Source: Polyangiaceae bacterium (GTDB taxonomy: Bacteria > Myxococcota_A > Polyangia > Polyangiales > Polyangiaceae). From it: a DNA stretch of 43,221 bases. The stretch lies in NCBI GenBank assembly GCA_035482215.1, contig DATHQY010000448.1:1-43221 (forward strand), given 5' to 3'. This document shows positions 3,934 to 19,912 of the stretch, piece by piece. Numbering within the stretch: position 1 is the stretch's first letter; each line of letters begins with the position of its first letter. The notes below the pieces were generated by a model. The model saw only the letters and a list, made by a program, of their open reading frames with translations, was not told the origin of the DNA and did not search any database. Both the position numbers and the translations under genes were made by a program.

Positions 3934-3966
3934 TCTACCCCGTCCTTTTTAGCACATCGACTCTTC

Positions 3967-4108
3967 GCGGCGGAGCCCCAGACTCATGTTCGCCGCTTTC
4001 GCGGCGGAGCCCCAGACTCATGTTCCCCGCTTCGCGGCAGAGCCCCAGGCTCATGTTCGCCGCTTTCCGCGGCGGCCCCCAGGCTCATGTTCGCCGCTTT
4101 CGCGGCGA
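3967..4108. repeat. Tandem direct repeat: four units of 33-35 bp plus a 7-bp partial fifth (consensus GCGGCGGAGCCCCAGRCTCATGTTCGCCGCTTTC)
   Basis: Units lie at 3967-4000, 4001-4033, 4034-4068 and 4069-4101, with a partial unit at 4102-4108. Each unit is bounded by GCGGCG...CGCCGC, a potential stem. The array covers the 3' end of gmhB and the gmhB-transaldolase spacer. Confidence 0.95.
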
Positions 4109-5302: not shown

Positions 5303-5342
5303 GATCGTCTCGAGACCGGTACCAAGGACCGGTGATGATGGG

Positions 5343-6338
5343 TCAGGACCGGTGGAAGTTCGCCATGATGCGCGCGCCGTCGAAGTCGAAGCGAAAGCGC
5401 ATGGGCCGGAGCCCGCGTGCAGCGAGCGCTTCTTGCACGCGCCGGCGTTCGGCTGCGCGCACGTAGAACATGAAGAATCCGCCACCCCCCGCGCCCATCA
5501 GTTTGCCGCCGATGGCGCCGGCTTTGCGCGCGACGTCATAGTGCTCGTCGATGGTCCCGTCGGCCATGTTGGCCGCGAGCTTGCGCTTGTTGGTCCAGTG
5601 CTCGTGCAGCATCTCGCCGTACGCGTCGATATTGCCCGTGAGCAAGATGCGCTTGGTCTCGTGGCCGAGCGCCTTGATCCGGTGCATTCGCTGCACCGCG
5701 TCGTCCTTGTTCGCGACAATCGTCTTCGCTTGCTCTTTGAGGACCGAAGCCGCCGCGCGCTCGACGCCCGAGTAATAGATGAGCAGGTTCGCCTCGAGCT
5801 CGTCGATGACCTCGTCGCGCAGCGCGAGCCGCTCGACGTCGACCGAACCGTCCGGGTGGAACGTCAGCGCGCTGATCCCGCCATACGCGGCGATGTACTG
5901 ATCCTGCTTGCCGATCGGTTCCTGAAGCACGTCGATCTCGAGGCTGCAGGCCTCGCGGGCGAGCTGCTCCACGGGCACGAACTCACGCCTGAATGCGTGC
6001 AGACCGTTGAGCAGCGCAACGGTGAACGTGCTGGACGAACCGAGGCCGGTGTTGGCCGGAACGTCGGCCAGGCTGTGGAGCTCGACGCCCTTGGTGACGT
6101 CCGTCATGCGGAGCGCTTCCCGGAAGATCCGGTGCCGGATCTGGTCGACCGAATCCACGATCTCGCTCTCGGTGTAGGCGAGGCGAATCGTGTTCTGGAA
6201 GCGCTTGGCCACGCAGACGTACACGAACTTGTCGACCGCGGCCGCGACGAGAAAACCGCCGTGCTCGCGCGAGTAACTCGGCAGGTCCGTACCGCCGCCG
6301 CCGAGCGAAAAACGAACCGGTGCACGAGAGACGATCAT
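5343..6338 (-). CDS. hddA: D-glycero-alpha-D-manno-heptose 7-phosphate kinase (GHMP kinase)
   Basis: The N-terminus MIVSRAPVRFSLGGGGTD is typical, as are the GHMP motifs PANTGLGSSS and KLMGAGGGGF. The ATG overlaps the hddC stop as ATGA at 6335-6338. Confidence 0.85.
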   Translation of the reverse strand: MIVSRAPVRFSLGGGGTDLPSYSREHGGFLVAAAVDKFVYVCVAKRFQNTIRLAYTESEIVDSVDQIRHRIFREALRMTDVTKGVELHSLADVPANTGLGSSSTFTVALLNGLHAFRREFVPVEQLAREACSLEIDVLQEPIGKQDQYIAAYGGISALTFHPDGSVDVERLALRDEVIDELEANLLIYYSGVERAAASVLKEQAKTIVANKDDAVQRMHRIKALGHETKRILLTGNIDAYGEMLHEHWTNKRKLAANMADGTIDEHYDVARKAGAIGGKLMGAGGGGFFMFYVRAAERRRVQEALAARGLRPMRFRFDFDGARIMANFHRS

Positions 6339-7090
6339 AGGGAAGCCGAAGTCCGAAGCAGCCGGTCGAGCTCGGCCAGCCCGGAGGGCGACCCAACTTC
6401 GTAGAATCTCTCATGGGCCACGTAGGCACGCAAGCGCATGCGCTGGGCCAGATCGTGCTGTACGCGATCGAGCCCGAACGCTTCGCCTTCGGGTGTCGCC
6501 GCGATTACGCTCCGTCGGAACGCGTTGGCGCCGTAATCGATGTGGTCCAGGCTCGGATCGCTGGCGCCCTTTTCGTACCGGCGCACCCACGCGCCGTCGA
6601 TGGCGACGTTCGACGCGTCCCATTGCCCATCGTTCTTGAAGACGGACATGACGCCGTCCGCGTCGTCGTGCGATTCGAGCATGCGGAGAGGACCAGCGTA
6701 GTCGAAGGGCAAATAGCTGTCGCCGTACGTCACGAGGAAGGCAGGCCCGAGGAGAGGGAGCGCCGCGCGCAAAGCCCCGCCGGTGCCGAGCAGATTCGGC
6801 CCCTCGTGCGACCACTGCACGGAGAGTCCGTAGCGGGCGCCGTCCTTCACGTGCGCTTCGATCTGGTCGCCCAGGAACGCGATGCACATGACCACCTCGC
6901 GGATGCCGCACGCCGCGAGGCGCTCGAGCTGCCAGTCGACGAAGGGACGGCCCGCCACCGGCAGCATCGACTTCGGCACCGTCAGCGTGGATGGATGCAT
7001 CCGCGTGGCGAGTCCGCCGGCGAGAACCACTGCTTGCACGGCGGGCTGCTTACCACGGGACACGCGGGAAAGCGCGTGTCTGGAGGCCAT
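6335..7090 (-). CDS. hddC: D-glycero-alpha-D-manno-heptose 1-phosphate guanylyltransferase (sugar-phosphate nucleotidyltransferase)
   Basis: It carries the nucleotidyltransferase motif AVVLAGGLATRM...PKSMLPV and GTGGAL, and is ~250 aa. It is the first gene of the operon and is translationally coupled to hddA. Confidence 0.8.
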   Translation of the reverse strand: MASRHALSRVSRGKQPAVQAVVLAGGLATRMHPSTLTVPKSMLPVAGRPFVDWQLERLAACGIREVVMCIAFLGDQIEAHVKDGARYGLSVQWSHEGPNLLGTGGALRAALPLLGPAFLVTYGDSYLPFDYAGPLRMLESHDDADGVMSVFKNDGQWDASNVAIDGAWVRRYEKGASDPSLDHIDYGANAFRRSVIAATPEGEAFGLDRVQHDLAQRMRLRAYVAHERFYEVGSPSGLAELDRLLRTSASL

Positions 7091-7419: not shown

Positions 7420-8748
7420 ATGAGCCGGCGTCTCTACCGCGGGGTCGAGTCTCGCATCCTCGACGTGATCGGGCCGTGGGCCGCGGTTGCGATCGCCGTT
7501 TTTTCGTTGACGGTGCTCTATACGGACGTCTCGCGTTTCGCCGGGCCGATCGGCGACGCGTACCTCCCGAGCATCATGCAGCCGGGGGGGGCGGACTTCG
7601 CGTATCCCTACAACGGCGCGCGCGCGCTCCTCATGCGCGTCAATCCGTACCACAATAACGTCCCAGAACTTCGAGATCCTTTTGGCCGCGCCCTGGATGG
7701 CCTGGGATATCCCCCCTCTCATTTCGTAATCTATTTGCCCATCGCGCTGATTGCGAAGAGCGATCGCCTGCTGGCGAACCGGATCCTGTTTCATTGCAAT
7801 CTCGTTTGGCTCACCGTTCTCGCGTTCGTGTCCTGGCGCTTGCTCCGAAGGCTGGTCCCGGCCGCGGCGGATTCACTGTGGCTCCTCTTGCCGTTCTTCT
7901 TGTTCGTATTCACCTTGGGGTCGGGAACGCTGGTTCTGCTCGAGCGGGGGCAGAGCGACGCGTTGACGTCTCTCCTTTGCTGGTCCGCCGTCCTCTCGTC
8001 GTTTCGGCGGCGATGGTTTCTGGCGATGTTTCTGGCTACCTGGGCCACGATGATCAAGGGATATCCCGTGCTCTTTCTGCCAGGCTTCGGACTTCTCGGT
8101 CTCACCCGTAGCCACTGGAAGGGCACCATTCTCGGTGGGATCGCGGCGTTTCTGATCTTCCTCGCCCCGGTTGTCCGGTATCTGCCGGCCGCGTTGGCCG
8201 TGATGACCAATCGCTCCGGCATGTTCTGGCCAGTCTGGTACAATCACAGTTTCAAGAACCTTGCTTACGCGATATCGCCTGCGTGGGCCTCTTCGGGTCA
8301 CAAGCTCTTTACTGGGCTCGGGCTCGTGGTCACGGTGTTGTGCTGGATTCGCGTACGGCGAGCGGATGACCCCACCGACCGGCTCGCCTGGCTCACGTTG
8401 TTCACGACGTGCTCGCTCGGCACGATGCTGGGCTACTCGAGCCTCAGCTGCCCTTACAATGACATCATCGTGTTGCCGGGCGCCGTCTTAATGGCGCTGA
8501 ACCAGCGACGACTCCTGGCCCTCGCCGGCGCCCCGCCGCCCCGCTTTGCATGGATACTCGGAGCGATGCTCGCGCTGGCTACGTCTCTCCTCCTCATGGA
8601 AAAGGTGGGGTCGGAGACGTTCCCGGGCGGCGCCGTGGGCCTCCTCGGTATCGTTGCCATCTCGGGTGTGCTCGCGATCACGAAGATGGGCGTCGTGTTC
8701 AGCCAGACGCTTGCCGCGTCTTCGATTCCATCCCCCGAATCGAGGTGA
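7420..8748 (+). CDS. Polytopic membrane glycosyltransferase, GT87/DUF2029-like (GT-C fold)
   Basis: It has ~10-12 hydrophobic segments. Its first loop, GGADFAYPYNGARALLMRVNPY, resembles the DUF2029 / PimE-type mannosyltransferase signature. GC content looks lower than in neighbouring genes. Confidence 0.65.
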   Translation: MSRRLYRGVESRILDVIGPWAAVAIAVFSLTVLYTDVSRFAGPIGDAYLPSIMQPGGADFAYPYNGARALLMRVNPYHNNVPELRDPFGRALDGLGYPPSHFVIYLPIALIAKSDRLLANRILFHCNLVWLTVLAFVSWRLLRRLVPAAADSLWLLLPFFLFVFTLGSGTLVLLERGQSDALTSLLCWSAVLSSFRRRWFLAMFLATWATMIKGYPVLFLPGFGLLGLTRSHWKGTILGGIAAFLIFLAPVVRYLPAALAVMTNRSGMFWPVWYNHSFKNLAYAISPAWASSGHKLFTGLGLVVTVLCWIRVRRADDPTDRLAWLTLFTTCSLGTMLGYSSLSCPYNDIIVLPGAVLMALNQRRLLALAGAPPPRFAWILGAMLALATSLLLMEKVGSETFPGGAVGLLGIVAISGVLAITKMGVVFSQTLAASSIPSPESR

Positions 8749-8754: not shown

Positions 8755-9627
8755 TCAGGCGCGCCGGGCGATGAACAGCATCTCGCCGGGGAGCCGGAGC
8801 GTAATCACGGGCTTCAGCTTGAACACCAGATTGGTGACCGCCGAGAGGACACCGTGGAGAGGGTAGCGCCGCAGCGAGTTGGAGATCGTCGAGGCTGTAG
8901 CTGCGAACGGGTAGAGCTCGGTCGTCACGTGCTCCAACCCCGCTAGCTTTGCGACACGCTCGAGGCTCGCCTGGGTGAAGTACTGGATGTGCTGTCCTTG
9001 CCAATACCACCAGCGGCGACCGAGGAGGCGCGGCAGCCAGGCGTTCACGTCCCCCGTCCAAATCACGACGATGCCGCCCGGTCGCAGGAGCCTGGCGATA
9101 TTCTCCATCTCGGCGCGCGGGTCCGGGAAGTGCTCGATGACGCCGATGAGCGACACGACATCGAAGCGCTGGCCCGCGTCCTTCGCGAACGTCGCCAGGG
9201 GAACGTCGTGCACGGTGAAGCCGCGCTCGCGCGCGATCGCGCACGACCACGCCGAAAGCTCCACGCCCTCGACGTCGAAGCCGGCCTGGCGCCCCGCCTC
9301 GAGGAAGTCACCCGTCGCGCAGCCGACGTCGAGCAGCTTTCGTCCCGCGGTCTTTTTGGCGACGGTACGCAAGACCGACGCGGCCGCGAGGCGCCTCGAT
9401 TCGGCGTGCTTCAGGTACTCCTCGTCGACGACGTCGTGGTAGCTCTCGGTGACGCGCTGCGGGAGCGGAGAACAAAACACGTGCGTGCAGGTTCTGCAAC
9501 GCACCACGCGAAAGGTGCGCGTGTGCTCCGGCCGGAAGGAATACGAAAAGGAAACCTGGTCCAGACGCTCGATGTCGGCTGGCCGGACCTCTTCGATCTC
9601 GGACCCGCCGCAGATGACGCAGGGCAT
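8755..9627 (-). CDS. Class I SAM-dependent methyltransferase with an N-terminal zinc ribbon
   Basis: Zinc ribbon residues are CVICGG...CRTCTH. The SAM motif I is LLDVGCATGDFL, followed by FDVVSLIGVIEHFPDP and LRPGGIVVI. Confidence 0.85.
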   Translation of the reverse strand: MPCVICGGSEIEEVRPADIERLDQVSFSYSFRPEHTRTFRVVRCRTCTHVFCSPLPQRVTESYHDVVDEEYLKHAESRRLAAASVLRTVAKKTAGRKLLDVGCATGDFLEAGRQAGFDVEGVELSAWSCAIARERGFTVHDVPLATFAKDAGQRFDVVSLIGVIEHFPDPRAEMENIARLLRPGGIVVIWTGDVNAWLPRLLGRRWWYWQGQHIQYFTQASLERVAKLAGLEHVTTELYPFAATASTISNSLRRYPLHGVLSAVTNLVFKLKPVITLRLPGEMLFIARRA

Positions 9628-9725
9628 GGGGACCCCTGTTTAGATCAATTGGCCCGAAAATGCGCGCCGTCTCTCGCCCGATGACGGATCTGCGCGCCCC
9701 GTGGTACAAACGCGGTCGAACGCTC

Positions 9726-11150
9726 ATGTCGCCCAAGACGTTGATCTTCATTCCGACCTACAACGAACGGGACAACGTCGGTCCCATGTGCGAGCAGATT
9801 CTTGCGCTTGGGCTCGACGCTGACCTCATGTTCATGGATGACGGCTCGCCGGATGGGACCGGCCAGGTGCTCGACGGGCTTGCCGCGAGACACCCGCGGG
9901 TTCGGGTCGTTCACCGCGCCGGCAAAGCGGGCATCGGCAGCGCTCACAAGGCGGGGATCAATCTCGCGTACGACGAGGGCTATGAGCGGCTCGTGACGCT
10001 CGACTGCGATTTCACGCATCGCCCGGAGATGATTCCCCAGTTCCTCGAGCGTAACGAAACCGCCGATGTCGTGGTGGGGTCACGTTACCTCGAGGCGGGG
10101 AGCCTCCCCGGCTGGTCGGCGCTCCGCAAGTCGCTCACGACGCTTGGCCACGTGCTCACGAAGAACGTGCTCGGAATTTCGCAAGATGCGACCGGAGCCT
10201 TCCGTGCTTACAACCTGACGACGATTCGGCGCGATCTCTTCAATCTCGTTCAGTCGAACGGCTATGCCTTCTTCTTCGAGAGCATGCTCGTGATGCAGCG
10301 AAACGGGCTGGCGGTTGCGGAGATCCCGATCACACTGCCCGCGCGTACGTACGGCAGTTCGAAGATGTCGGTCGCGGAAGTGCGGCGTAGCGTCACGACG
10401 CTCATGACGCTCTTCATCCAGGACCAGACGAATCCGGGGCGCTTCCGGGCCGGCAAGCGGTCCTTGACCCTTGATCCGGCGCTCGTCGATCCGCAAAACT
10501 GGAACGAGTACTGGGACGCAAAATCCGCCAAGACAACGGCCGCATACGACCTCGTGGCGGCGCTCTATCGCAACGCGATCATCAAGCGCCGGCTCGAATC
10601 GACGATCTCGCACGAGTTCGCGCAGGGCGCGCGTCTACTGCACGCTGGATGCGGGGGTGGACCCGTCGACGCGGACCTGCACCAGAAGGTCCGGATCACG
10701 GCCGTCGACATCTCGCCTTCGGCGCTCGACCTTTATCGCCGTAGCAATCCCGACGCTGAGGACGTTCGCCACGCCGACATCATGAATCTGCCGTTTGCCG
10801 ACAACAGCTTCGACGGCGCCTACAACCTGGGGGTGGTCGAGCATTTCGATCGGGACCAGCTCGCGAAGGTGTTCTCCGAGCTGCGGCGCGTGCTCAAGCC
10901 GAACGGGAAGCTCGTCGTGTTCTGGCCGCATGCGCGTGCGACGAGCGTCGCCGCCCTCGGCGCCGCCCACTGGCTGCTGAACGACGTCATGCACAAGAAC
11001 GTTCGCCTTCATCCGCCGGAGGTCTCGCTGGTGCACTCGGCGCGCGAGGCCGCGGAGCTCCTCGCGTCCGGCGGCTTCGACCTCAAGTCGTACGAATTCG
11101 GCCCTGAAGACTTCTTCGTGCAGGCGAAGATCGTCGCGACCGTTCACTAG
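9726..11150 (+). CDS. Fusion of a Dpm1/Ppm1-like polyprenyl-phosphate glycosyltransferase (GT2) with a C-terminal SAM methyltransferase
   Basis: The GT2 part has LIFIPTYNERDN, FMDDGSPDGT, TLDCDFTHRP and VVGSRY. The methyltransferase part has LLHAGCGGGP, GVVEHF and LKPNGKLVVF. I placed the start at ATG 9726 (MSPKTLIF); the alternative ATG at 9660 would add 22 residues. Confidence 0.8.
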   Translation: MSPKTLIFIPTYNERDNVGPMCEQILALGLDADLMFMDDGSPDGTGQVLDGLAARHPRVRVVHRAGKAGIGSAHKAGINLAYDEGYERLVTLDCDFTHRPEMIPQFLERNETADVVVGSRYLEAGSLPGWSALRKSLTTLGHVLTKNVLGISQDATGAFRAYNLTTIRRDLFNLVQSNGYAFFFESMLVMQRNGLAVAEIPITLPARTYGSSKMSVAEVRRSVTTLMTLFIQDQTNPGRFRAGKRSLTLDPALVDPQNWNEYWDAKSAKTTAAYDLVAALYRNAIIKRRLESTISHEFAQGARLLHAGCGGGPVDADLHQKVRITAVDISPSALDLYRRSNPDAEDVRHADIMNLPFADNSFDGAYNLGVVEHFDRDQLAKVFSELRRVLKPNGKLVVFWPHARATSVAALGAAHWLLNDVMHKNVRLHPPEVSLVHSAREAAELLASGGFDLKSYEFGPEDFFVQAKIVATVH

Positions 11151-11153: not shown

Positions 11154-12023
11154 TCAGTCCGCCATCATCATCGAAGCGAGCTCCCCGAAGGCGACGCGCG
11201 CACGCCATCCGAGGGCACACAAACGCTCGGGACGCGACACGAGCCGCGGATACTCCGCCCGGAAGCCGCTCCTGATTCGGACGTGGTCGCGCCAGGCGAG
11301 ATTCACGCGCGAAAAACAGGCCTCCAGCCACTGTTCGACGGAGTGCCCATCGCCCGTGCCGATCACGGCCTCGAAAACTTCGTCCTGGCTTGCGAGCATC
11401 ACGGCGGCCTCCATCGTGTCGCCCGCGAACGTCCACTCCTTGATGACGGACGGATCACCGATCTCGAGCGTCTCGTCGCTGCCGGCGGCAATACGACGGG
11501 CCGCCTGCGCGATCGTCATCGAGAGATGCCCGATGCCTCGGCGCGGGCTCTCATGGTGGAACAGGTACCCAACGTAGGCCTTGACTCCAAGGGAACGAAA
11601 GTAGCGAGCCGCGTAAACGGACTGGATCCGGGCGACGGCGTACGCGCTGCTGGCCTCGAAAGGCGTGTTCTCGTCGATTGGCTGCCCGACGTTACGAAAC
11701 TGAACGGCCGAGCCGGCGATGAATACCCGCGCCCCAGGCGCATGTGTGCGGACCGCCTCGAGGACGTTGAGGCAACCAGTCGAGATCGCGGCGTGGTTCT
11801 CGTAGAGCGCCTCGTGGCGTGTCGTGGACCGCGCCGCGAGGTGGAAGATGTAGTGCGGGCGCGTGCTCGCGATGACGGCCGATACAGCTTCGCCGTCGGC
11901 GACGTCGAGGCGTGACCAGGGGCCCGACCGCGAAAAGCCGGTGGCTTCCACGCCGCGGCCGCGCAACGCCTCGATGAGATAGGGGCCGTCTTGGCCGTTG
12001 GCGCCGAGGACGAGCGCTTTCAC
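11154..12023 (-). CDS. GDP-mannose 4,6-dehydratase-family protein, short and with substituted catalytic residues
   Basis: GMD hallmarks are present (LGANGQDGPYL, FHHESPRRG). By my hand alignment, the GMD ASTSE motif reads AGSAV and YAVAK reads YAVAR. The GTG start at 12021-12023 lies 6 nt after the C-methyltransferase stop. Confidence 0.7.
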   Translation of the reverse strand: MKALVLGANGQDGPYLIEALRGRGVEATGFSRSGPWSRLDVADGEAVSAVIASTRPHYIFHLAARSTTRHEALYENHAAISTGCLNVLEAVRTHAPGARVFIAGSAVQFRNVGQPIDENTPFEASSAYAVARIQSVYAARYFRSLGVKAYVGYLFHHESPRRGIGHLSMTIAQAARRIAAGSDETLEIGDPSVIKEWTFAGDTMEAAVMLASQDEVFEAVIGTGDGHSVEQWLEACFSRVNLAWRDHVRIRSGFRAEYPRLVSRPERLCALGWRARVAFGELASMMMAD

Positions 12024-12029
12024 GCGCCG

Positions 12030-13301
12030 CTATCCCTTCGCTGCGCCCCGGACGATCTCGATGGTCGGCAGCGGGAAGATCATGCCGACGCCGGAGGCGA
12101 GCAGCGCCTTCTCGCGTTCGACGAACTCGTCGCGAAAGTGCCAGGGCAATACTAGATAGTAATCCGGCTTCGCCTTCCGCGACTCCTCTTCGCTCACGAT
12201 GAGGATGTCGGAGCCGAGCGTGCGCGCGCCGAACTTGTCGGGGTTACGTTCGGCCGCGACGTCGACGAGGCGGCTGTCGATACCGCACCACTGGAGGATC
12301 GTGTTGCCCTTCGTCGACGCGCCGTAAGCGTGGATGCGCTTGCCCTCGGCGCGCAGCTTCCGCAACAGCGCGAGCAGCTCCTGCTTGTGGACGTTCACGC
12401 GCTCCTGGAAGTTTCTGTACGGCTGGTCCGTGTCGAGTTCGAGGTCGAACTCTTCCTGGCGCAGGCGCTTGATGTTGGCCGTGAACTCGTCGCGCCGATA
12501 ACGCCCATTGTCGGCATGCGTGGCATAGCAGCGGATCGAGCCGCCGTTGCTGGCATTGAGCGAGACGTTCACGAGCCGCAGATCGGCCTCCCGCATGATG
12601 CGCTCGAGCACGGCGAGGCTGTAATACTCGAGGTGCTCGTGGCAGATCGTGTCGTAGCTCGTCATGCGGAGCATGGTCGGCATGTACGACATCTCGACGC
12701 ACCAGAGACCGTCGGGCGAAAGGACGCGCTTGATGGCCCGGACGAACGCGATGGGATCTTCGAGATCGTAGAACATCGCGATCGACGTCACGATGTCGCA
12801 GGACTTCCCTGCGAGGGCGCTGGACAGATCTTCCGAGGGGAAGAGATCGTGGACGACGGTGATACCGGCCGGCACTTCGTTGGCAAGATCGGAGGGGTCT
12901 ACGCCGAACTTCGTGAACGACGCCGGATACGACTTGAGCAGCGTGCCGTCGTTGCATCCGATGTCGAGCACACGCGCGCCGGGCTTGCCGTAGAGGGTGG
13001 CTGCCTCCTCGGCGATCGCGCCGAGGTGGTTCGTCATCGTCGCGTTCGTGCCCGATCGATACCAGTAAACCGAGTAGAGAACCTCGGGCGGCACCGTATG
13101 CTCCGTTTGCAGGAGGCCGCACGCCTTCTCGTCGATCTCCGGGTTGCACCGCACGAGTGACGTCGGCACGCGCCGCATCGGCGGGACCTGACGCCCGGGC
13201 TTGAGGAACGAGCCCTGGAGGTGCTGCTCGCCGAGGTCGATGACCTTGGTCAACGACGACGACTTGCAGACCCGGCACGTGGTTCGACGCGTGAGGTGCA
13301 T
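12030..13301 (-). CDS. NDP-sugar C-methyltransferase (TylCIII-like; zinc-binding N-domain + SAM MTase + C-methyltransferase C-domain)
   Basis: The N-terminus has CRVCKS...LVRC, then YWYRSGTNATM, the SAM motif VLDIGCNDG, and HLEYYS. At 423 aa it fits this family. Confidence 0.8.
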   Translation of the reverse strand: MHLTRRTTCRVCKSSSLTKVIDLGEQHLQGSFLKPGRQVPPMRRVPTSLVRCNPEIDEKACGLLQTEHTVPPEVLYSVYWYRSGTNATMTNHLGAIAEEAATLYGKPGARVLDIGCNDGTLLKSYPASFTKFGVDPSDLANEVPAGITVVHDLFPSEDLSSALAGKSCDIVTSIAMFYDLEDPIAFVRAIKRVLSPDGLWCVEMSYMPTMLRMTSYDTICHEHLEYYSLAVLERIMREADLRLVNVSLNASNGGSIRCYATHADNGRYRRDEFTANIKRLRQEEFDLELDTDQPYRNFQERVNVHKQELLALLRKLRAEGKRIHAYGASTKGNTILQWCGIDSRLVDVAAERNPDKFGARTLGSDILIVSEEESRKAKPDYYLVLPWHFRDEFVEREKALLASGVGMIFPLPTIEIVRGAAKG

Positions 13302-13344: not shown

Positions 13345-13478
13345 GTTTCGCGCGGCGCGACGCGAGGGGGTTACGTGCGCCGCGGGGCCGCCCGGACGAG
13401 GCGAGTCGCCGTCGAACCGGGGCCGCGTTGAAGCCTTTGGGCAGCACGAGCGGCGGCGTTTGCGCCTTGCGCCTCCCC

Positions 13479-14501
13479 ATGGACGCCGCTAAACACCGGG
13501 CGGTGCGAGGAGCGCAGATTGTGGCCGCTACGCGCGCCAGCCTGCGCGAATTCTTCTTGCTCGAAGACGCCGGTCGCCGCAGCGCCGCGACCGGCGCCAT
13601 GGATCGCGAATCGATCTTGGCATACTACGACGCCGCCCAGCGTAGGCGCGCCGTCGCAAATTCTCTCAGCGTTCCGGCGGAGACTCCAGCGGGCCTCATC
13701 CTCTACAGAGATGCGTGCCTGTGTCTCATCCAGGCGGTGCTCCTGGCGACGTCTGGAGGGAGCAAGCCGGGCGTCGAGGTGACGGAGCCGGAGGCGGCAT
13801 GGGAAGCTGTCAATCGCGTCGTCGATGATTGGGCCCCCGTCCCTCCGGCCGACCTCGAGTGCGTGCGCGATGTGCTCTTCGCCCGAGATCTGCTCGCGCT
13901 CGATCGGTTCTCGACCGAGGAGGCCGCGCGCCACTCGGCCGCACTTCGCGCCGCGCTCCAGCGTCTTTCGCGGTTCGTCGAGCCGCGTTCGCCGCTCCAG
14001 ATCCAACGCGAACGTCGGACTCGCCAGGCGCTGGCCGTTCTCGTCGTCGGCACGCTCCTGGTGACCCTCGCGGTGCGGTGGATGAGCCCATCCAACTTGG
14101 CGTTGAACCGCCCCGTCTCGTCCAGCCCTGTGGCCTTCGACACCACCGCCGCGGCCGCGGTGGACGGCGCGAAAAGCGAGCGGTTCGATTTCCATACCCA
14201 GACCGTGAACTCGCCCCAGCTGACCGTCGATCTCGGGAAAACGCGGGAGATCGCCAAGGTCAAAGTCTTCGGACGCGGCGACTGCTGTTTCGATCAGTCG
14301 TTGCCGCTGGTGCTCGAAGTCTCGACGGACGGCATCTCTTTTCGGCCGCTTGCCGAGCGCACGACGGCGTTCAGCACGAGCGATCCCTGGATCGTCCAAA
14401 TCGGCGCCCGCGAGAACGCGCGCTTCGTTCGCTTGCGCTGCAGAGGGGAGGGCGCTCTCGTGCTGAACGAGGTCGAAGTCTACGGGAGGCCCTGGCAATA
14501 G
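13479..14501 (+). CDS. Single-pass membrane protein with a C-terminal discoidin (F5/8 type C) carbohydrate-binding domain
   Basis: The TM segment is ALAVLVVGTLLVTLAV. The C-terminal ~140 aa carry QLTVDLGKTREIAKVKVFG...ARFVRLRC...LNEVEVYG. The start is uncertain: TTG 13428, ATG 13479 and ATG 13599 are all possible. Confidence 0.7.
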   Translation: MDAAKHRAVRGAQIVAATRASLREFFLLEDAGRRSAATGAMDRESILAYYDAAQRRRAVANSLSVPAETPAGLILYRDACLCLIQAVLLATSGGSKPGVEVTEPEAAWEAVNRVVDDWAPVPPADLECVRDVLFARDLLALDRFSTEEAARHSAALRAALQRLSRFVEPRSPLQIQRERRTRQALAVLVVGTLLVTLAVRWMSPSNLALNRPVSSSPVAFDTTAAAAVDGAKSERFDFHTQTVNSPQLTVDLGKTREIAKVKVFGRGDCCFDQSLPLVLEVSTDGISFRPLAERTTAFSTSDPWIVQIGARENARFVRLRCRGEGALVLNEVEVYGRPWQ

Positions 14502-14826: not shown

Positions 14827-16287
14827 TCACCTCGGCGGCGGCCCGTAGAGCGTCGCTCGCCAGTCTGCGTATCCGTACGTCCCGGCGATCGATTGAACCG
14901 GCGTCCACGACGAGTCGACCTCGAGGATTTCCCCCGACGTGGAATACGTAATCAGCGTATTGCCGTTTGGGAGCCGCTGCACGTCCCCGAGGACGGTGCT
15001 GGACAAGCTTCCCGACGTGAAGTCAAAGGCCGACGTGGCAGACATCGGGCTCCCGGCATTCAGCTGAAATTCCAGGATGTCGGATGGGCCACCGGTATTG
15101 TTGTTGAACACGAGCATCGTGCCGTCATCGAGGAGATGGTGACCGTGATTCACGTGCCAGCTCTCCGAGACACAATGCGCCGCGCCCGCCGGCGCGTTGG
15201 CGCAGCTACCGCCGAATTGCCACTGGAGAATTCCAGCCTCCGAGACCTTGACGTAGAGGTTCGGGTACCGATCGCCGATGGTGAACGTGTCGTCGACGGG
15301 GTGGTACAGGATCGAGTTGCAGTGGTACGACACCGTCGACGGTTCGCCCGTGGTCCCGGCTCCCACGTAAAGGTTCGGGCCGATCGCGAAGACGGTCGTC
15401 GGCGAGCCTGACCCGTCGGAGCTCATCTCGACGAGATTGCTCGCCACGTCGACGTCGCTGCCATTCCACACCATGGCGGCGATTTTCCCCGGGAGCACCG
15501 CGAAGTCGTGATGAGCATTCGCGAGGCCGGCGATGTTCGTCATCCCGGTCTGTCCGTCCATCGAGACCCATCGCATCTCGCCGCCCGAGTTGTCCTCGTT
15601 GGCGGCCACCATCCACATGTTGGCGCCCTCGTAGTCCATGCGGGCGCGGGTGCATTGAATCGGTGCGGCCGCAAACCATACCATCGTACCGTCGGCGTCG
15701 ATGATGACGGCGTAGTTGCCGTACGTGACCCCGCTGCTCGTGACGATGAACCCCTTCGCCTGCGCGGCCGCGTTGAAGACCGTACGCGAGATCGCCGGAA
15801 TCATCGCTGTCGGTACTTCGTTCAGGACCCCCGTCGTTGGCAGCGTGTAATCCGAACTTCTGCAGACCGCGCCGCTCCCGTCCTGCGCCTCGATGTGGAA
15901 CGTGTAGTCGCTCGATGGCTTCAGCCCGAGCAGCAACGTTCTGTAGTTCGCCCTCGTCAGGTCCACGGGGGCCGTGCCACCCGTATTGAGCACGCCGGAG
16001 GGCGCGCCATTCAGCGTGTAGACGATGCTGGCGCTCGCCGGGGCCGCCAGGGTGGTCGACCACTCGACGACACCCACCGTGGCCATCCCCGGGCTGATCG
16101 CATTCGTGAGGATCGAAAAGGAGCAACTCGCGGCACCGCCGTCGTCCCCCGCCGAGGGCATCGCGTCCCCCGCGCCGATCACTTCGCCGTCGGAGCGTCC
16201 CCCGTCCGCTCCGGGCCTTGGCGAGGTCGAGTCACCCGACCCGCAACACGCCAGGATGAGCAGCACCGGGGCGAAGCGGGACGACAT
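14827..16287 (-). CDS. Lipoprotein, arylsulfotransferase (ASST)-like beta-propeller with an N-terminal beta-sandwich
   Basis: The lipobox is MSSRFAPVLLILACCG. ASST-like motifs are ESWHVNHGHHLLDDG and LPNGNTLITYS. ATG at 16285-16287 lies 8 nt after the upstream gene's stop. Confidence 0.65.
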   Translation of the reverse strand: MSSRFAPVLLILACCGSGDSTSPRPGADGGRSDGEVIGAGDAMPSAGDDGGAASCSFSILTNAISPGMATVGVVEWSTTLAAPASASIVYTLNGAPSGVLNTGGTAPVDLTRANYRTLLLGLKPSSDYTFHIEAQDGSGAVCRSSDYTLPTTGVLNEVPTAMIPAISRTVFNAAAQAKGFIVTSSGVTYGNYAVIIDADGTMVWFAAAPIQCTRARMDYEGANMWMVAANEDNSGGEMRWVSMDGQTGMTNIAGLANAHHDFAVLPGKIAAMVWNGSDVDVASNLVEMSSDGSGSPTTVFAIGPNLYVGAGTTGEPSTVSYHCNSILYHPVDDTFTIGDRYPNLYVKVSEAGILQWQFGGSCANAPAGAAHCVSESWHVNHGHHLLDDGTMLVFNNNTGGPSDILEFQLNAGSPMSATSAFDFTSGSLSSTVLGDVQRLPNGNTLITYSTSGEILEVDSSWTPVQSIAGTYGYADWRATLYGPPPR

Positions 16288-16295
16288 GAAAAACA

Positions 16296-18302
16296 CTACG
16301 GCATCGCGTTGAGGTCGACCACGGTCATCTGATGGGCGCGGTATACGACATGGCGCATGCTCGCGAACTTTTCGATCGAATCCATCCCGTCGATGTGAAA
16401 AGGCGCCTCCCCGCTCAGGAAAAGATCGGCAGCCTTGAACTGGGCCCAGTGGGCCCGATTGTAAAGCTCGTTCGCCGTATCGAAGTTCGTCCACACGACG
16501 TAACGAATGCCGTTCGCTCTGAAGTAATCGAGCAACGCCTGCGCGCCCTTGAATGCGGGCCACCCGGGCTTCGGCCCCGTCCCGCCGAGGACATCGAGCG
16601 TGTAGATCCTGTTGCGCTTGAAGTCGAACCGCCAAGGTTCGTGTACTGCGCATGCGAACGTCGCGCCCGGATCGATGTGCGACTGGATCTCCGTGTACGC
16701 GGCGGTGCCCGCCGAAAACTCGCGCTCATCGCGGTCGCCGTTCGTAAATACATGATTCGCGACGTCGATCGCGCCGATATAGGCACCGCGCATTTCATCG
16801 TGAACGAGCGCAACGTGGAGCCCGACCGCGAGGGCCAAAAGCGCGGCGCGGATGTCGTGGGGCCCGAGTGACATCGCGATGATGAGCCCCGTTGCCGCGA
16901 CGTACGCGTTCATGTAGCGCGCGTGCGCAAACGAGTCGAAGGCCCCCGCTGCTCGCGCGAGCGACCAGATGCCGAGAAGCGACCCAACCGTGAGAAACAC
17001 GATGTCGTTGCGGGCGCGGCCTCGCATCGGGACGAAGCCCGCGAAGAGGAAGAGGAGGAAGAAGCAAATCGGCTTGTCGTAGGTCAGGTCCGAAAACCAG
17101 GCCTGGATCGCCTGTTTCATCGGCGCCGTCTTCAAGAACACCCACCCCGGCGTCATGTTGCCCTGCCAGATCGGGTAGAAGAACGTCCCGCACGATTGGT
17201 AGAGCATCCACGACCAGGGAAGCAGCGTCAGGGCGATCGCCGCCGAGAAAAGGCCCATCCGACTCACGAACGATAGAAGGGCTTGGCGAGTGAACGGTCG
17301 TCGCGTCCCCAGAAAGTAGTCCGACGCGAACACCAGGAGCAGAAACGGAAGAAGCGCCGGCCCGTTCGTCGGTCGGAGGATGATGGCTACGACGAGCAGA
17401 ACACCGAGCGCGAGGATGCGCCGCGGCTCGTAGGGCCATTGCGGGGCGTTGCCATCCGCCAAGGGGAACCGGAGCGTCCGGTACATCGTCAAGACAACGG
17501 GAATGCCCGTCGTCTCGCTCGCGATGTTCAGATGGACGCCGGTGAGGGTGAAGAACAGGCACATGGCGAAGCCGAGCGGAACGGCGTGCCAACCCTTGAT
17601 GCCATTTCGCGTCACGTGGCCGACGACGAGGCCGAACGCGAGGGCCAGGCCGATGCCCCCGTCGACCATCGGCAGACAATAGAAGGGCGCCAGCGACGCG
17701 AAGAGACCGTGCAGGTACGGCTGGCCGCCGAGCGTCGCGAAGCGCCGGGAATTGAATGGCTCGTACAGACTGCCGATATCGATCAGCTTTTTGGCGAATT
17801 CGAAATAGAGCGGCTGATCGTCGGACGGCTGGAACTCATGCTTTCCGGCGTAATGGACGAAGATGAGCGCGGCGACGGCATACGACAGGGCCAGCAGGAT
17901 GAGGACGCCGGAGTGCGCGATCCACGCGGCGAGCCGGCGCCGCGAGAGGGGCCGCGGCTTCTCGTTCGCCCAGAGCCAGATGAACGCACCGACGCCGACC
18001 GCCACTTGTGCGATCAACACGGGCCCCCTCGCGGCGTGTATGAGCGTCAGATAGCCGCCGACTAGCAGGACGAACGCCATGCCCCAGCCGGCGCGAAGAC
18101 CCCAATCGACTCGCCGCCCATTCGTGAGCCAGAGGTTCACGACGGAGCCCCAACCGACGAACGAGAGGAGCATGAGTAAGCTCCACACGAGCGTGATCCC
18201 GCTCGCGTGTGCACGCAGTGCTACGACGAGTGCGACGGCGACGACAGCGAACACCGAGCCGAGCGCCAGACGGACGGCCTTGTTCCCCGAGAGAGAGACC
18301 AT
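16296..18302 (-). CDS. Large polytopic membrane protein (~14 TM) with a C-terminal soluble domain; possible GT-C-like transferase or polymerase
   Basis: It has many hydrophobic segments. An acidic loop PSDDQPLYFEF follows TM5. A ~160-aa hydrophilic C-terminus follows. I preferred ATG 18302 over 18347 because the 15 extra codons use rare AGA/ATA/AAT codons. Confidence 0.6.
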   Translation of the reverse strand: MVSLSGNKAVRLALGSVFAVVAVALVVALRAHASGITLVWSLLMLLSFVGWGSVVNLWLTNGRRVDWGLRAGWGMAFVLLVGGYLTLIHAARGPVLIAQVAVGVGAFIWLWANEKPRPLSRRRLAAWIAHSGVLILLALSYAVAALIFVHYAGKHEFQPSDDQPLYFEFAKKLIDIGSLYEPFNSRRFATLGGQPYLHGLFASLAPFYCLPMVDGGIGLALAFGLVVGHVTRNGIKGWHAVPLGFAMCLFFTLTGVHLNIASETTGIPVVLTMYRTLRFPLADGNAPQWPYEPRRILALGVLLVVAIILRPTNGPALLPFLLLVFASDYFLGTRRPFTRQALLSFVSRMGLFSAAIALTLLPWSWMLYQSCGTFFYPIWQGNMTPGWVFLKTAPMKQAIQAWFSDLTYDKPICFFLLFLFAGFVPMRGRARNDIVFLTVGSLLGIWSLARAAGAFDSFAHARYMNAYVAATGLIIAMSLGPHDIRAALLALAVGLHVALVHDEMRGAYIGAIDVANHVFTNGDRDEREFSAGTAAYTEIQSHIDPGATFACAVHEPWRFDFKRNRIYTLDVLGGTGPKPGWPAFKGAQALLDYFRANGIRYVVWTNFDTANELYNRAHWAQFKAADLFLSGEAPFHIDGMDSIEKFASMRHVVYRAHQMTVVDLNAMP

Positions 18303-18304
18303 TA

Positions 18305-18353
18305 TCTTGCCCGCATTTCTCCACGCCCGACCGTGTCTTGCCCGCATTTCTCC
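18305..18353. promoter_or_regulatory. Perfect 18-bp direct repeat TCTTGCCCGCATTTCTCC x2 with 31-bp periodicity, in a divergent promoter region
   Basis: The copies at 18305-18322 and 18336-18353 lie between the membrane-protein gene (start 18302, minus) and the MTase-GT2 gene (start 18452, plus). Confidence 0.5.
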
Positions 18354-18451
18354 GCGCCGGCCCGCGCGCCGCTGTGTACCACATAGATCCTTGCGGGCAC
18401 CGCGCTCCGCATCGCTCGCGAACGCCGGGCGGTTTGATATCGTCCTCCGCG

Positions 18452-19912
18452 ATGTCCGTGACTGATCCGCGTCCTGAGACCGCCACTACGCTCGATTCTT
18501 CGGCCGGGGCGTCTTCGATGTCGCCCGAGTGGCGAGAATACTTCCTCGCGCTCCTCCACGGGGATCCGCGAGTGGCCGCCGCCAGGCGCTTCGTGCGAAC
18601 GAACATCTGCGGGGTGATGCGGCGTCTCGTCCCGCAGGACGCGCGCGTGCTCGAAGTGGGCGTCGGCGGCGGGCAGGTGCTCGCGGCTCTCCCGAATCAG
18701 GTGCGTCACGGCATTGATCTTCTGCCGGAAGCCATCGAAGCGTCGCGCCGGCTCGACCCCACGATGCGCGTCGATCGCGCCGACGTGCTGACGTTCAGCG
18801 CACCCGAGCGGTACGACGCAATCATCTGCGACCGGCTCCTCCATACGGTGCCGGACGTGCAACGGATGCTCGAGAATCTCGCCGCTCACATCGAAGAAGA
18901 CGGCAGGATCTACCTCACGTGCTTCAACTTCTTGTGGGGTCTCTTCCTCGGCAGCGCGGTGAAGCTCGGTGTCACCGAGAGCCGTCCGGCGGAGAACTGG
19001 TTCTCCGAAAGTGCGTTGGAAGACGTGTTCACCCTCGTGGGGCTCGAAGCGGTCCACTACGAAGATCACGTGCTCGTCCCGGCAGACGTCCCGTTGCTCA
19101 ACAAATTCGTAGCGCAGCTTCCCGGCGTCCGTTCCGGAGCGCTCTACCGCACGTACGTTCTCCGGCACCGCCGCGTTCACCGCGCGCCGAACCCCGGCGT
19201 TTCCGTCATCGTGCCCGCGCGAAACGAGTCGGAGAACGTGATCGCCGCCGTCGCGCGGACCCCGGTGATGGGCGCATGGACGGAGATTGTCTTCGTCGAA
19301 GGCGGGTCGACCGACGGTACGTGGGAGCAAATCCAGAAGACGATCGCGTCGTACCGAGGTCCGCTTCGCCTCTCGGCCTACAAGCAGACGGGCAAGGGGA
19401 AGGGAGACGCCGTGCGTCTCGGCTTCGACAAGGCCAAGGGGGACATCCTCATGATTCTCGACGCGGACCTGACGGTGCCGCCCGAGGATCTGCCGAAGTT
19501 CTACGACGCGATGGCCAGCGGACTGACGGACTACGTGCAGGGCACGCGGATGGTCTACCCGATGGAGGACGAAGCCATGCGCCTCCTCAACAAGTTCGGC
19601 AACGTCTTCTTCGCCAAGACGTTCACCTATCTGCTCGACCAGCGCATCAACGACACGCTCTGCGGGACGAAAGTCCTCTGGAAAAAGGACTACGAGCGCC
19701 TCGCCAGGCAGCGATCCTACTTCGGCGAGCTCGATCCGTTCGGCGACTTCGATCTGATCTTCGGCGCGCGACGGCTGCACCTAAAGCTGATGGAGATCCC
19801 GATTCGGTACCGGAGCCGCGTCTACGGCGAGACGAACATCTCGCGCTTCCGGGACGGCGCGCTGCTCCTCCGCATGACGGCGCTGGCCGCCCGCAAGATC
19901 AAGTTCGCCTAG
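18452..19912 (+). CDS. Fusion of an N-terminal SAM methyltransferase with a C-terminal family-2 glycosyltransferase
   Basis: The methyltransferase motif I is VLEVGVGGGQ, followed by YDAIICDRLLH. The GT2 part has VSVIVPARNE, EGGSTDGT and ILDADLTVP. ATG 18452 was chosen because the upstream part of the ORF is Arg/Pro-rich. Confidence 0.8.
   Translation: MSVTDPRPETATTLDSSAGASSMSPEWREYFLALLHGDPRVAAARRFVRTNICGVMRRLVPQDARVLEVGVGGGQVLAALPNQVRHGIDLLPEAIEASRRLDPTMRVDRADVLTFSAPERYDAIICDRLLHTVPDVQRMLENLAAHIEEDGRIYLTCFNFLWGLFLGSAVKLGVTESRPAENWFSESALEDVFTLVGLEAVHYEDHVLVPADVPLLNKFVAQLPGVRSGALYRTYVLRHRRVHRAPNPGVSVIVPARNESENVIAAVARTPVMGAWTEIVFVEGGSTDGTWEQIQKTIASYRGPLRLSAYKQTGKGKGDAVRLGFDKAKGDILMILDADLTVPPEDLPKFYDAMASGLTDYVQGTRMVYPMEDEAMRLLNKFGNVFFAKTFTYLLDQRINDTLCGTKVLWKKDYERLARQRSYFGELDPFGDFDLIFGARRLHLKLMEIPIRYRSRVYGETNISRFRDGALLLRMTALAARKIKFA

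Follow-up and report, generated by a model that had tools for sequence, protein, structure and literature searches.

A short paralogue of GDP-mannose 4,6-dehydratase that has lost the dehydration glutamate is linked to a sugar C-methyltransferase and may help to make methyl-branched GDP-sugars

[quoted passage not shown] Because the catalytic Glu is lost, the catalytic Lys is replaced by Arg and a C-methyltransferase gene lies almost always directly upstream, we conclude that the dehydratase label is wrong and that sGMD and the methyltransferase most likely make a methyl-branched GDP-sugar. sGMD belongs to a distinct and widespread clade derived from GMD. We put at about an even chance that it acts as an NADP(H)-dependent C4-ketoreductase finishing a GDP-6-deoxy-3-C-methyl-hexose. 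Ketoreduction after methylation would be the simplest role, and was absent from the options of a preliminary description of this DNA.

The two genes lie on the minus strand, that for the methyltransferase (423 amino acids) at 12030–13301 and that for sGMD (289 amino acids) at 11154–12023. The six intergenic nucleotides between the TAG stop of the former and the GTG start of the latter (CGGCGC, 12024–12029, minus strand; junction TAG-CGGCGC-GTG) agree with the spacing first described. A Shine-Dalgarno-like GAAGGGA (12033–12039, minus strand) within the 3′ end of the methyltransferase gene, 9 nt ahead of the sGMD start, suggests that translation of the two may be coupled. The methyltransferase has an N-terminal Cys4 zinc domain (PF08421, 5e-16; cysteines C9, C12, C52 and C61), a SAM-binding domain (PF13489, 2e-18) and a C-terminal Methyltransf_14 domain (PF08484, 4e-49), all over the Pfam cut-offs. 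In the PDB it matches MtmC (4rv9, 2.6e-58 over residues 7–417) and TcaB9 (about 5e-38), consistent with its earlier designation as a TylCIII-like NDP-sugar C-methyltransferase. Its segment DTICHEHLEYY aligns with DTIYHEHLSY of MtmC; by analogy with TcaB9, its Glu-His part (CHEHLEYY) would hold the catalytic residues.

sGMD scores well within the GMD family (PF16363, 1.8e-43 and 149.8 bits against a cut-off of 27; PF01370, 109 bits) and its best solved sequence matches are GMDs (1n7g, 4e-40; 1rpn, 7.5e-36), with a TIGR01472 score of 128.4 bits that lies below the curated equivalog cut-off of 415 bits. Four motifs are evident, GANGQDG (residues 7–13), IAGSAVQFR (102–110), SAYAVARIQSVY (126–137) and FHHESPRRG (155–163), the first and last being the cofactor and GDP motifs already recognised in the preliminary description. 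HMMER alignments to three solved GMDs place Ser105 at the Thr/Ser site, Val107 at the Glu site and Arg132 at the Lys site, with Tyr128 kept. The earlier alignment by hand (Thr to Ser, Glu to Val, YxxxK to YxxxR) is thereby reproduced, with Val and Arg rather than Glu and Lys at the catalytic positions. On the DNA, the codons of Ser105-Ala106-Val107 (TCG ... GTT) occupy 11703–11711 and those of Tyr128-Ala-Val-Ala-Arg132 (TAC ... CGG) 11628–11642, both on the minus strand; Val107 is GTT (11703–11705) and Arg132 is CGG (11628–11630), as had been read before. Since changes of the same Val/Arg type are found in the closest 120 database homologues (120/120) and in 51 diverse clade members, they are neither chance nor sequencing error. 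Arg162, in FHHESPRRG, is matched by alignment offset to the substrate/NADP+-orienting Arg (BceN Arg190; PMC3584063), and His156 sits where GMD has Asn. With its C5 base Glu replaced by Val or Leu, sGMD would be unable to dehydrate, and it appears to retain a working site for NADP(H) together with Ser, Tyr and Arg as catalytic residues. The nucleotide is probably GDP, judged solely from the retained GMD-like residues.

The AlphaFold2 model of sGMD (pLDDT 98.0) has an N-terminal domain of alternating strands and helices, and its top Foldseek matches are all NDP-sugar SDRs. These include GMD (1n7h, TMq 0.92) and the GDP-6-deoxy-D-lyxo-4-hexulose reductase RMD (2pk3, TMq 0.91), the latter being the best size-normalised match (TMt 0.85). 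By sequence, the match to 2pk3 (1.3e-19, 22% identity) is weaker than those to the GMDs, and that to a solved GDP-heptose 4,6-dehydratase (7us5) is 4.7e-11 at 18% identity, with the dehydration Glu absent from sGMD. The protein had been thought to lack some 50–80 C-terminal residues; this is contradicted by its alignment to Pseudomonas aeruginosa GMD, which reaches residue 325 of the 335-residue chain. Relative to 39 Glu/Lys-type GMDs (median 322 amino acids), the deficit consists of 15 residues after position 35, 11 at the C terminus and a few single residues elsewhere. The 15-residue gap falls at the site of the GxxRR motif and RR loop of GMD, where sGMD reads GFSRSGPW and retains a single Arg (R32), so that its shortness would stem mainly from the missing internal loop. 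In GMD, according to PMC3584063, this loop probably touches the adjacent subunit and the cofactor bound there.

The sGMD clade has matches at no fewer than 469 places (at least) in reference genomes, taken as one genome per species, across many phyla; carriers include Cyanobacteria (Microcoleus, Kamptonema), Bacteroidota, Nitrospirota, Planctomycetota, Myxococcota and others. A tblastn search of a plasmid collection gave no sGMD match at 1e-40. A neighbour-joining tree built without the signature columns recovers the Arg-type sequences as one monophyletic group in all 100 bootstrap replicates (100/100). The GMD Glu position is Leu in 30, Val in 17, Met in two, Tyr in one and Phe in one of 51 clade members, against Glu in 39/39 GMDs, and the catalytic Lys position is Arg in 51/51 members, against Lys in 39/39 GMDs. 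Every source name among the members is nevertheless ‘GDP-mannose 4,6-dehydratase’. Residues G7, G10, Q11, S105, Y128, R132, H157 and S159 are invariant, R32 is conserved and position 162 is Arg in 50/51. The nucleotide-binding half stays GMD-like (H157, S159, R162 and W197 kept; R195 changed to Lys), and the C-terminal R-P-x-E motif is partly kept, its Glu mostly there and its Arg variable. His70, His156, His166 and Gln108 are conserved specifically in the clade and have possible acid/base character. These alignments show deep purifying conservation, and the invariant Ser105, Tyr128 and Arg132 together with the Rossmann motif argue for a retuned enzyme rather than a dead partner. Our literature search found no biochemical study of any clade member, no paper using the term YXXXR for an SDR and no characterised precedent for an invariant Arg at the SDR Lys position. 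Glu-less GMD-like groups of His/Lys, Leu/Lys and Ala/Lys type were considered as a curated precedent and set aside, all falling under the gmd cut-off and having no other assignment. Apparent fusions were likewise discarded: P0242 is a frameshifted assembly artefact with methyltransferase matches at its two ends only, and the long ‘sGMD’ ORFs of L005, L006, L012 and L059 were judged to be upstream extensions typical of high-GC DNA.

Stretches of about 20 kb around the pair were compared at 80 reference-genome loci and in the window. The C-methyltransferase lies upstream of sGMD on the same strand in 74/80 loci, three of the six exceptions being at a contig edge, and adjoins it in all five divergent members examined (33–46% identity). 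The substituted variant forms a clade that is almost always linked to a methyltransferase. No third sugar-nucleotide enzyme is conserved with the pair, and the two genes stay together even in members with 33% identity. A Glu/Lys GMD occurs within 9 kb of the pair in 23/81 loci (about 28%). Several of these genuine GMDs adjoin an fcl-like gene and may instead supply GDP-fucose. Closely spaced arrangements on one strand include the order GMD, C-methyltransferase, sGMD and GT2-methyltransferase at L059, and sGMD then GMD at L008, L014 and L061; the GMD of L073 lies some 400 nt upstream of the methyltransferase gene, on the other strand. The window contains neither a Glu/Lys GMD nor a DmhA-type dehydratase, and in three close relatives with housekeeping genes beside the cassette there is no Glu/Lys GMD within 10 kb of the module. 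Frequent neighbours elsewhere are DUF4254 (44 loci), a 385-aa protein (36 loci) and a 600–1100-aa GT/MT protein (34 loci), none of which is present in the window; mentions of DUF4254 in our literature search were incidental only.

The pair in the window is followed by a gene at 9660–11150 (plus strand; Pfam, NCBIfam) for a GT2 (a Dpm1/ArnC/AglJ-like polyprenyl-phosphate glycosyl synthase) fused to a class I methyltransferase. Homologues with 64–89% identity adjoin the pair at L001, L012, L015, L023 and L059, and a GT2 comes after it at L089, L090 and the P0022 locus. In Myxococcota this gene travels with the pair, and the enzyme it encodes probably consumes the modified nucleotide sugar. A class I SAM methyltransferase of 290 amino acids (8755–9627, minus strand; Pfam) has 90% identical homologues at L001 and L023, and in the closest relatives it is found together with the pair. 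A GT87/ALG3-like GT-C membrane glycosyltransferase (7420–8748, plus strand; PF09594, 2.9e-07) may, from its context, act in the periplasm to transfer a sugar linked to polyprenyl phosphate. Farther away, at 3984–7090, lies a complete heptose-nucleotide set of the GDP-heptose type (GmhA, HddA, GmhB and HddC-like). It belongs to a same-strand run of abutting or overlapping ORFs of its own (560–7090) that ends with a separate MT-GT2 gene, and between this run and the pair lie three genes, of which two are encoded on the opposite strand. The set, a fructose-6-phosphate aldolase/transaldolase-like gene and a gene for a GalE-like SDR are 4–9 kb away from the pair, within one glycan region. Homologues of the four heptose genes were detected neither in the 80 other pair-carrying loci nor in the three close relatives.

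[quoted passage not shown] In this lineage the Dpm1-like GT2 would then probably transfer the sugar to polyprenyl phosphate for the GT-C transferase. By analogy with TylCIII-type pathways, a 4-ketoreductase would be the activity needed next. Deletion of the RR loop and the size-normalised match to RMD would likewise speak for a reductase, the hydrophobic Leu or Val at the former Glu position may suit a C6 methyl group, and genuine GMDs near the module, some in the same operon, point in the same direction. The GMD scaffold itself has latent C4-reductase activity in several bifunctional GMDs (PMC3584063; bioRxiv 10.1101/854612). Against this role count the modest share of loci with a GMD nearby, some perhaps serving GDP-fucose, and the lack of one near the module in the window and in the three close relatives, so that we infer the substrate supply here. 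The Arg in place of the SDR Lys also counts against it, as does the 4-ketoreductase activity described for MtmC, the closest solved homologue of the methyltransferase (PMC3539893), which would make a separate reductase less necessary.

That an atypical GMD-family protein acts with the C-methyltransferase, as the preliminary description proposed, is upheld by the pair's recurrence across phyla; neither of the two specific roles it offered fares as well. Of these, a non-catalytic role, in which sGMD would bind the GDP-sugar as a partner of the methyltransferase or act as its chaperone, seems to us scarcely credible. Two canonical catalytic residues are indeed replaced and the two genes are tightly coupled, but a pseudoenzyme should drift at Ser105, Tyr128, Arg132 and the GxxGQDG motif, which are intact over some 50 diverged clusters alongside the conserved Arg32 and Arg162, and a change from Lys to Arg keeps the charge. 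The other had sGMD supply a 4-keto-heptose. With GDP-D-glycero-D-manno-heptose from the GmhA, HddA, GmhB and HddC-like enzymes, the pair would yield a C-methyl-branched heptose, in keeping with the complete gene set, the aldolase/transaldolase-like and GalE-like genes nearby and the lack of both GMD and DmhA-type dehydratase in the window. The heptose genes are real, but their absence around the pair elsewhere, their separate run and the much weaker match of sGMD to 7us5 than to GMD make such a link highly improbable.

An oxidase role is possible on GDP-mannose rather than on a heptose. In this main rival reading, which we regard as tentative and on balance unlikely, sGMD would oxidise C4 of GDP-mannose, as GMD does in the first half of its reaction, but for lack of the Glu could not go on to dehydrate; the methyltransferase would methylate GDP-4-keto-mannose, and sGMD would re-reduce C4 to give GDP-3-C-methyl-mannose with its 6-OH kept. 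The two genes of such a ‘borrow-the-hydride’ module would be self-sufficient, needing only GDP-mannose (here perhaps GDP-heptose), SAM and catalytic NADP(H), with sGMD a functional Ser-Tyr-Arg SDR. This would fit the persistence of the pair as a two-gene unit, the GMD-free cassettes in the window and in close relatives, and the Dpm1-like GT2 and GT-C families, which normally handle mannose-like donors. To our knowledge, however, the characterised enzymes of the TylCIII family all use 4-keto-6-deoxy sugars as substrates; several lineages have genuine GMDs within the same operon, loss of the RR loop would fit an exchangeable cofactor better than one bound throughout a cycle, and a hydrophobic residue near C5/C6 would poorly suit a C6 hydroxyl. 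Oxidation of a GDP-sugar at C4 without dehydration has a precedent in Cj1427 (PMC10680097), and non-deoxy 3-C-methyl-D-mannose is a natural sugar of the Helicobacter pylori O-antigen (PMC12961483), for which we found no biosynthetic route in the searchable literature. A different catalytic role or substrate, such as C3/C5 epimerisation with reduction as in GMER, or action on a non-GDP nucleotide sugar, we consider improbable. The clade-specific His and Gln residues and cytidylyltransferase-family genes near the pair at L082 and L085 would allow it, but at the site of the Cys that GMER uses for epimerisation (residues in PMC3539893) the clade has Val or Leu, the nucleotide-binding half is GMD-like and the best sequence and structure matches are all GDP-sugar enzymes.

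As the clade lacks the residue that defines dehydration, reconstructions that count its members as GMD in pathways to GDP-fucose, GDP-rhamnose and similar sugars would be wrong. To find Arg invariably where SDRs have their catalytic Lys is very unusual, and this offers a natural experiment on the function of that residue. C-branched sugars are thought to be rare beyond actinomycete antibiotics and a few types of LPS, and we found no GDP-linked C-methylation pathway with biochemical demonstration in the searchable literature; the module predicts methyl-branched GDP-sugars in all the phyla named above. If the oxidation–reduction cycle were true, non-deoxy branched sugars such as that of H. pylori would gain a first biosynthetic route, and sGMD would be the first functional SDR of its Ser-Tyr-Arg kind. 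Both this cycle and the C4-ketoreductase role are directly testable with two recombinant proteins and commercial GDP-mannose.

Among known systems, GMD is closest to sGMD by both sequence and fold, with the same GxxGQDG motif, Ser/Thr and Tyr, H-E-S-P-x-R segment and substrate-orienting Arg (R162), and probably the same nucleotide and cofactor. sGMD differs in the two catalytic substitutions, in the switches Asn156 to His, Phe166 to His and Arg-Asp195/196 to Lys-Glu, in lacking the GxxRR motif and RR loop, in being some 30–80 residues shorter and in its linkage to a C-methyltransferase. RMD, like sGMD, is a short (about 300 amino acids) GMD-like extended SDR, and it catalyses the reaction that we propose for sGMD, reduction of a GDP-4-keto-6-deoxy sugar at C4; the sGMD clade, however, branches from GMD and not from RMD, its presumed substrate is C3-methylated, and published searches for RMD homologues required YXXXK (bioRxiv 10.1101/854612) where sGMD has Arg. 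Cj1427, the Campylobacter jejuni GDP-D-glycero-D-manno-heptose C4-dehydrogenase, is an SDR that makes a 4-keto intermediate for partner enzymes (PMC10680097), but its NADH stays tightly bound and is recycled with the help of alpha-ketoglutarate, it has no linkage to a methyltransferase and it is absent from the PDB sequence matches of sGMD at E ≤ 0.001 and from its top 50 fold matches.

The route proposed for virenose in Coxiella burnetii likewise combines 4,6-dehydration (GMD CBU0689), C3-methylation by a TylCIII-type enzyme (CBU0691) and C4 reduction (GMER-like CBU0688) on a GDP-sugar (PMC3539893). It is in silico only, and the candidate for its reductase is homologous to GDP-fucose synthase and has the usual Ser-Tyr-Lys triad, rather than being a paralogue of GMD; in the literature after 2013 we found nothing linking virenose, a C-methyltransferase and GDP. 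In the TDP-deoxysugar pathways (TylCIII, EryBIII, TcaB9 and MtmC with separate 4-ketoreductases), whose methyltransferases are of the same family, it is established that methylation alpha to the 4-ketone comes first and ketoreduction second. We know of no TDP branched-sugar pathway with a GMD-derived ketoreductase. Those pathways use TDP-sugars, mainly in actinomycete secondary metabolism, whereas the sGMD pair is found in cell-surface glycan loci of many phyla.

The stretch from 11154 to 13301 is wholly occupied by two minus-strand ORFs, encoding a protein of 423 aa (12030-13301) followed by one of 289 aa (11154-12023), both analysed by Pfam and PDB search. The first passes the Pfam cut-offs for PF08421, PF13489 and PF08484 and matches MtmC (4rv9) at 2.6e-58 over nearly its full length and TcaB9 at ~5e-38, with its HEH segment aligned in the PDB-search alignment; it is a sugar C-methyltransferase with three domains, of the TylCIII/TcaB9/MtmC type. 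[quoted passage not shown] The three Pfam domains, the MtmC match and the junction between the genes (TAG-CGGCGC-GTG) bear out the preliminary description, which had placed a TylCIII-like methyltransferase directly upstream of the short GMD. Since a GAAGGGA motif lies within the end of the methyltransferase gene, 9 nt ahead of the GTG of the short GMD, its placement suggests that the two are translationally coupled.

In HMMER alignments to three solved GMDs, AGSAVQF of the short GMD stands opposite AGSSEMF or ASTSEMF, and YAVAR opposite YAASK or YGVAK. These alignments therefore place Ser105 at the Thr/Ser position, Val107 (codon GTT) at that of the dehydration Glu and Arg132 (CGG) at that of the Lys, with Tyr128 retained. 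The Thr to Ser, Glu to Val and YxxxK to YxxxR replacements first read by eye are thus confirmed, and the GANGQDG and FHHESPRRG motifs are present as claimed. A loss of 50-80 C-terminal residues, also proposed, does not hold, since the alignment to the P. aeruginosa GMD extends to residue 325 of 335. Compared with 39 Glu/Lys-type GMDs, whose median length is 322 aa, the protein lacks 15 residues beyond position 35, 11 at its C-terminus and single ones dispersed elsewhere. The 15-residue gap falls, in the alignment, at the GxxRR motif and RR loop that GMD carries (PMC3584063). An AlphaFold2 model of the short GMD (pLDDT 98.0, pTM 0.94) matches GMD structures with a TMq of 0.92, and its best size-normalised match is the reductase RMD 2pk3 (TMq 0.91, TMt 0.85).

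The altered residues are shared widely. Y-x-x-x-R occurs in 120/120 of the closest database homologues (62-100% identity, 285-305 aa), with S-[AG]-[VLM]-Q-F at the Glu position among those where that motif matched. When 50%-identity representatives were searched exhaustively, ~50 short-protein clusters emerged, the most divergent at 33% identity, that share the signature GS[AG][LV]QF, Y-x-x-x-R and FHH[DE]SP, as against S[ST]SE, Y-x-x-x-K and FNHESP in ordinary GMDs of the same list. When 51 clade members were compared column by column with 39 GMDs, Glu was replaced by Leu/Val at position 107, Lys by Arg at 132 (51/51), Asn by His at 156, Phe by His at 166, Arg-Asp by Lys-Glu at 195-196 and Asp by Glu at 218; G7, G10, Q11, D12, G13, R32, S105, Y128, H157, S159, R162 and W197 are common to both groups. 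After exclusion of the signature columns, 100/100 bootstrap neighbour-joining trees still grouped the Arg-type sequences into a single bipartition. The suggested survey of the Val/Arg variant thus finds a conserved clade, and its pattern marks an enzyme that has been retuned under purifying selection, not a pseudoenzyme in decay.

In a scan that took one genome per species, a relative is encoded in 469 places. Cultured carriers of the module include Microcoleus vaginatus FACHB-2002, Flavipsychrobacter stenotrophus RB1R16, Lamprocystis purpurea DSM 4197 and Kamptonema sp. UHCC 0994. The best 80 of the 469 are all Arg-type and come from Myxococcota, Cyanobacteria, Bacteroidota, Nitrospirota, Planctomycetota, Abditibacteriota, Verrucomicrobiota, Pseudomonadota and one Methanoregula MAG; every annotated name seen for clade members is 'GDP-mannose 4,6-dehydratase'. 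The archaeal copy (L080, 10001-10867; 55% identity, methyltransferase ~0.9 kb upstream) suggests either transfer of the module between domains or a binning artefact. In another reference locus, from a long-contig MAG (L023:8299-10555), the methyltransferase is broken into three ORFs (90-98% identity to that of the window) and the short GMD is only 184 aa, reflecting either homopolymer errors of long-read assembly or a decaying copy. A sample of 107 from the GMD family also held groups that lack the Glu and keep the Lys (His/Lys, 10; Leu/Lys, 3; Ala/Lys, 2), with P0168, P0175, P0194, P0183, P0193, P0201 and P0224 of the representative search as members. None reaches the curated GMD cut-off or has another curated assignment, and from these groups it would seem that several uncharacterised 'dehydratase-dead' GMD paralogue families exist.

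In 74/80 reference-genome loci the short GMD is preceded on its own strand by a homologue of the methyltransferase (43-98% identity to that of the window), at <=60 nt in 22, at <=4 kb in 50, where the interval holds one to three genes of glycosyltransferase or methyltransferase type, and farther away in 2. It also adjoins the short GMD in 5/5 divergent clade members (33-46% identity) looked up individually, directly upstream in 4 and divergently transcribed in 1. The pairing is therefore old and near-obligate. Of the six loci without an upstream methyltransferase, three have <2 kb of upstream DNA, and a fourth, L044, comes from a MAG that holds two copies, the other of which (L065) is accompanied by the methyltransferase.

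Other genes recur beside the pair. A DUF4254 protein of ~150 aa, absent from the window, is encoded upstream of the methyltransferase on the same strand in 44/81 loci (e.g. L010:5702-6157), mostly in Cyanobacteria and Bacteroidota, where it may be a third module component. A ~385-aa protein directly follows the short GMD in 36 loci (e.g. L069:13071-14177), and in 34 the pair is separated by a protein of 600-1100 aa that ends in a methyltransferase domain (e.g. L071:1660-4263); neither received a Pfam glycosyltransferase assignment. A Glu/Lys GMD lies <=9 kb from the module in 23/81 loci and is of three kinds: long canonical, ~327-aa P. aeruginosa-like and ~320-aa SSECF type. In some loci it shares the operon: L059 (Polyangiaceae) has the order GMD, C-methyltransferase, short GMD, GT2-MT, and in L008, L014 and L061 it directly follows the short GMD. 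Some of these GMDs adjoin an fcl-like gene and may serve GDP-fucose instead. The ~320-aa type (SSECF, FNHESPLRP, without the GxxRR motif) lies a few kb from the module in L016, L042 (13258-14232), L047, L064, L068 and L073, some of which additionally hold a canonical GMD and an fcl-like gene; in those lineages the module may have it as a dehydratase of its own. The 43 kb of the window hold no Glu/Lys GMD.

Within the window, three fusions (560-2464, minus; 9660-11150, plus; 18209-19912, plus) of a Dpm1/AglJ-like GT2 with a class I methyltransferase, in both domain orders (two MT-GT2, one GT2-MT), a stand-alone methyltransferase (8755-9627) and a GT87-like GT-C (7420-8748) suggest a heavily methylated glycan built via polyprenyl phosphate. 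The region upstream of the pair encodes an F5/8-type C (discoidin) domain protein (13428-14501, plus), an arylsulfotransferase-like beta-propeller protein (14827-16653, minus) and a 683-aa protein without family match (16296-18347, minus), tblastn matches to which adjoin the pair in L005 and L006. Unrelated to the finding are three minus-strand genes, encoding a 936-aa radical-SAM protein (Radical_SAM_N2 and DUF2344; 23390-26200), a fusion of a ParA/MinD-like ATPase with a DnaJ fragment and an HTH_25 domain (32965-34560) and a double-length, 713-aa D-Ala-D-Ala-ligase-like ATP-grasp protein (36669-38810).

The minus strand also carries a convincing, apparently complete heptose-nucleotide gene set: a nucleotidyltransferase (6335-7090), an HddA-like GHMP kinase (5343-6338), a GmhA-like SIS isomerase (~4703-5340) and a GmhB-like HAD phosphatase (~3984-4720). 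The true GmhA and GmhB starts are probably internal, because the mechanical ORFs overlap their neighbours. A fructose-6-phosphate aldolase/transaldolase-like gene (3274-3933), which might be the source of sedoheptulose-7-phosphate, a GalE-like SDR (2301-3260; PDB 3ehe, 4.7e-78) and the MT-GT2 fusion at 560-2464 follow on the same strand. Homologues of the four heptose genes were undetected in every other locus of the reference-genome set. Three close relatives (80-90% identity) have a compact cassette, with the C-methyltransferase, the short GMD, a Dpm1-like GT2, by Pfam an F5/8-type C protein and two large proteins (545-700 aa) without family match, and in one a PMT_2 GT-C; housekeeping genes adjoin it, histidyl-tRNA synthetase immediately upstream in two and pyrimidine genes farther upstream in one. 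The heptose genes are best read as an adjacent branch of the same glycan region and not as the pair's substrate supply.

Methylation followed by ketoreduction is the established order in TDP pathways. TylCIII-type enzymes methylate alpha to a 4-ketone, and ketoreduction has to come next; for a GDP-sugar this order has been proposed, in silico, on the route to virenose (PMC3539893). The short GMD is the obvious candidate for this C4 reduction, because several true GMDs have C4-reductase side activity (PMC3584063; bioRxiv 10.1101/854612), because removal of the Glu abolishes only the dehydration half-reaction and because the missing RR loop should leave the cofactor site accessible for NADPH exchange. 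A GMD would thus act on the sugar nucleotide, the methyltransferase would methylate C3 and the short GMD would reduce C4, yielding GDP-6-deoxy-3-C-methyl-hexose, a route to which we give about even chances; its GDP specificity, methylation position, stereochemistry and ketone source are all putative. In Myxococcota the co-conserved Dpm1-like GT2 would then probably transfer the sugar to polyprenyl phosphate, for a GT-C enzyme.

The module is conserved as two genes only and many cassettes have no GMD, so the short GMD might perform both redox steps, oxidising C4 of GDP-mannose without dehydration and re-reducing it after methylation. We hold this to be possible though rather unlikely. To our knowledge, known TylCIII enzymes take 6-deoxy substrates; Leu/Val at the former Glu site would fit a methyl better than a hydroxyl, and the RR loop, a presumed cofactor contact of GMD, is absent. 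On its side, Cj1427 is a natural precedent for C4 oxidation of a GDP-sugar without dehydration (PMC10680097), and the non-deoxy 3-C-methyl-D-mannose is a natural sugar (PMC12961483), for which we found no description of a biosynthetic route in the literature. The remaining readings rank lower still. A different chemistry or nucleotide seems improbable. A heptose substrate, to which the nearby genes had pointed, is very improbable given that those genes were undetected in the other loci. Least credible is the earlier proposal of a non-catalytic partner of the methyltransferase, against which stand the coherence of the switches across the clade and the retention of cofactor and catalytic positions, including S105 and Y128.

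Dehydration at a GMD followed by C3-methylation and C4 reduction by the short GMD would make RMD the closest of the known families in proposed function. However, the short GMD is not an RMD: the two are distant in sequence (22% identity), and it is from GMD that the clade branches. We found no report in the literature of a Y-x-x-x-R SDR or of any study of the clade. GMD is its ancestor, yet the short GMD departs from it in 4/6 testable defining features, namely the RR motif and loop, the Lys, the Glu and the family score. We class it as an NDP-sugar SDR whose catalytic set is altered and whose partner, the methyltransferase, is fixed.
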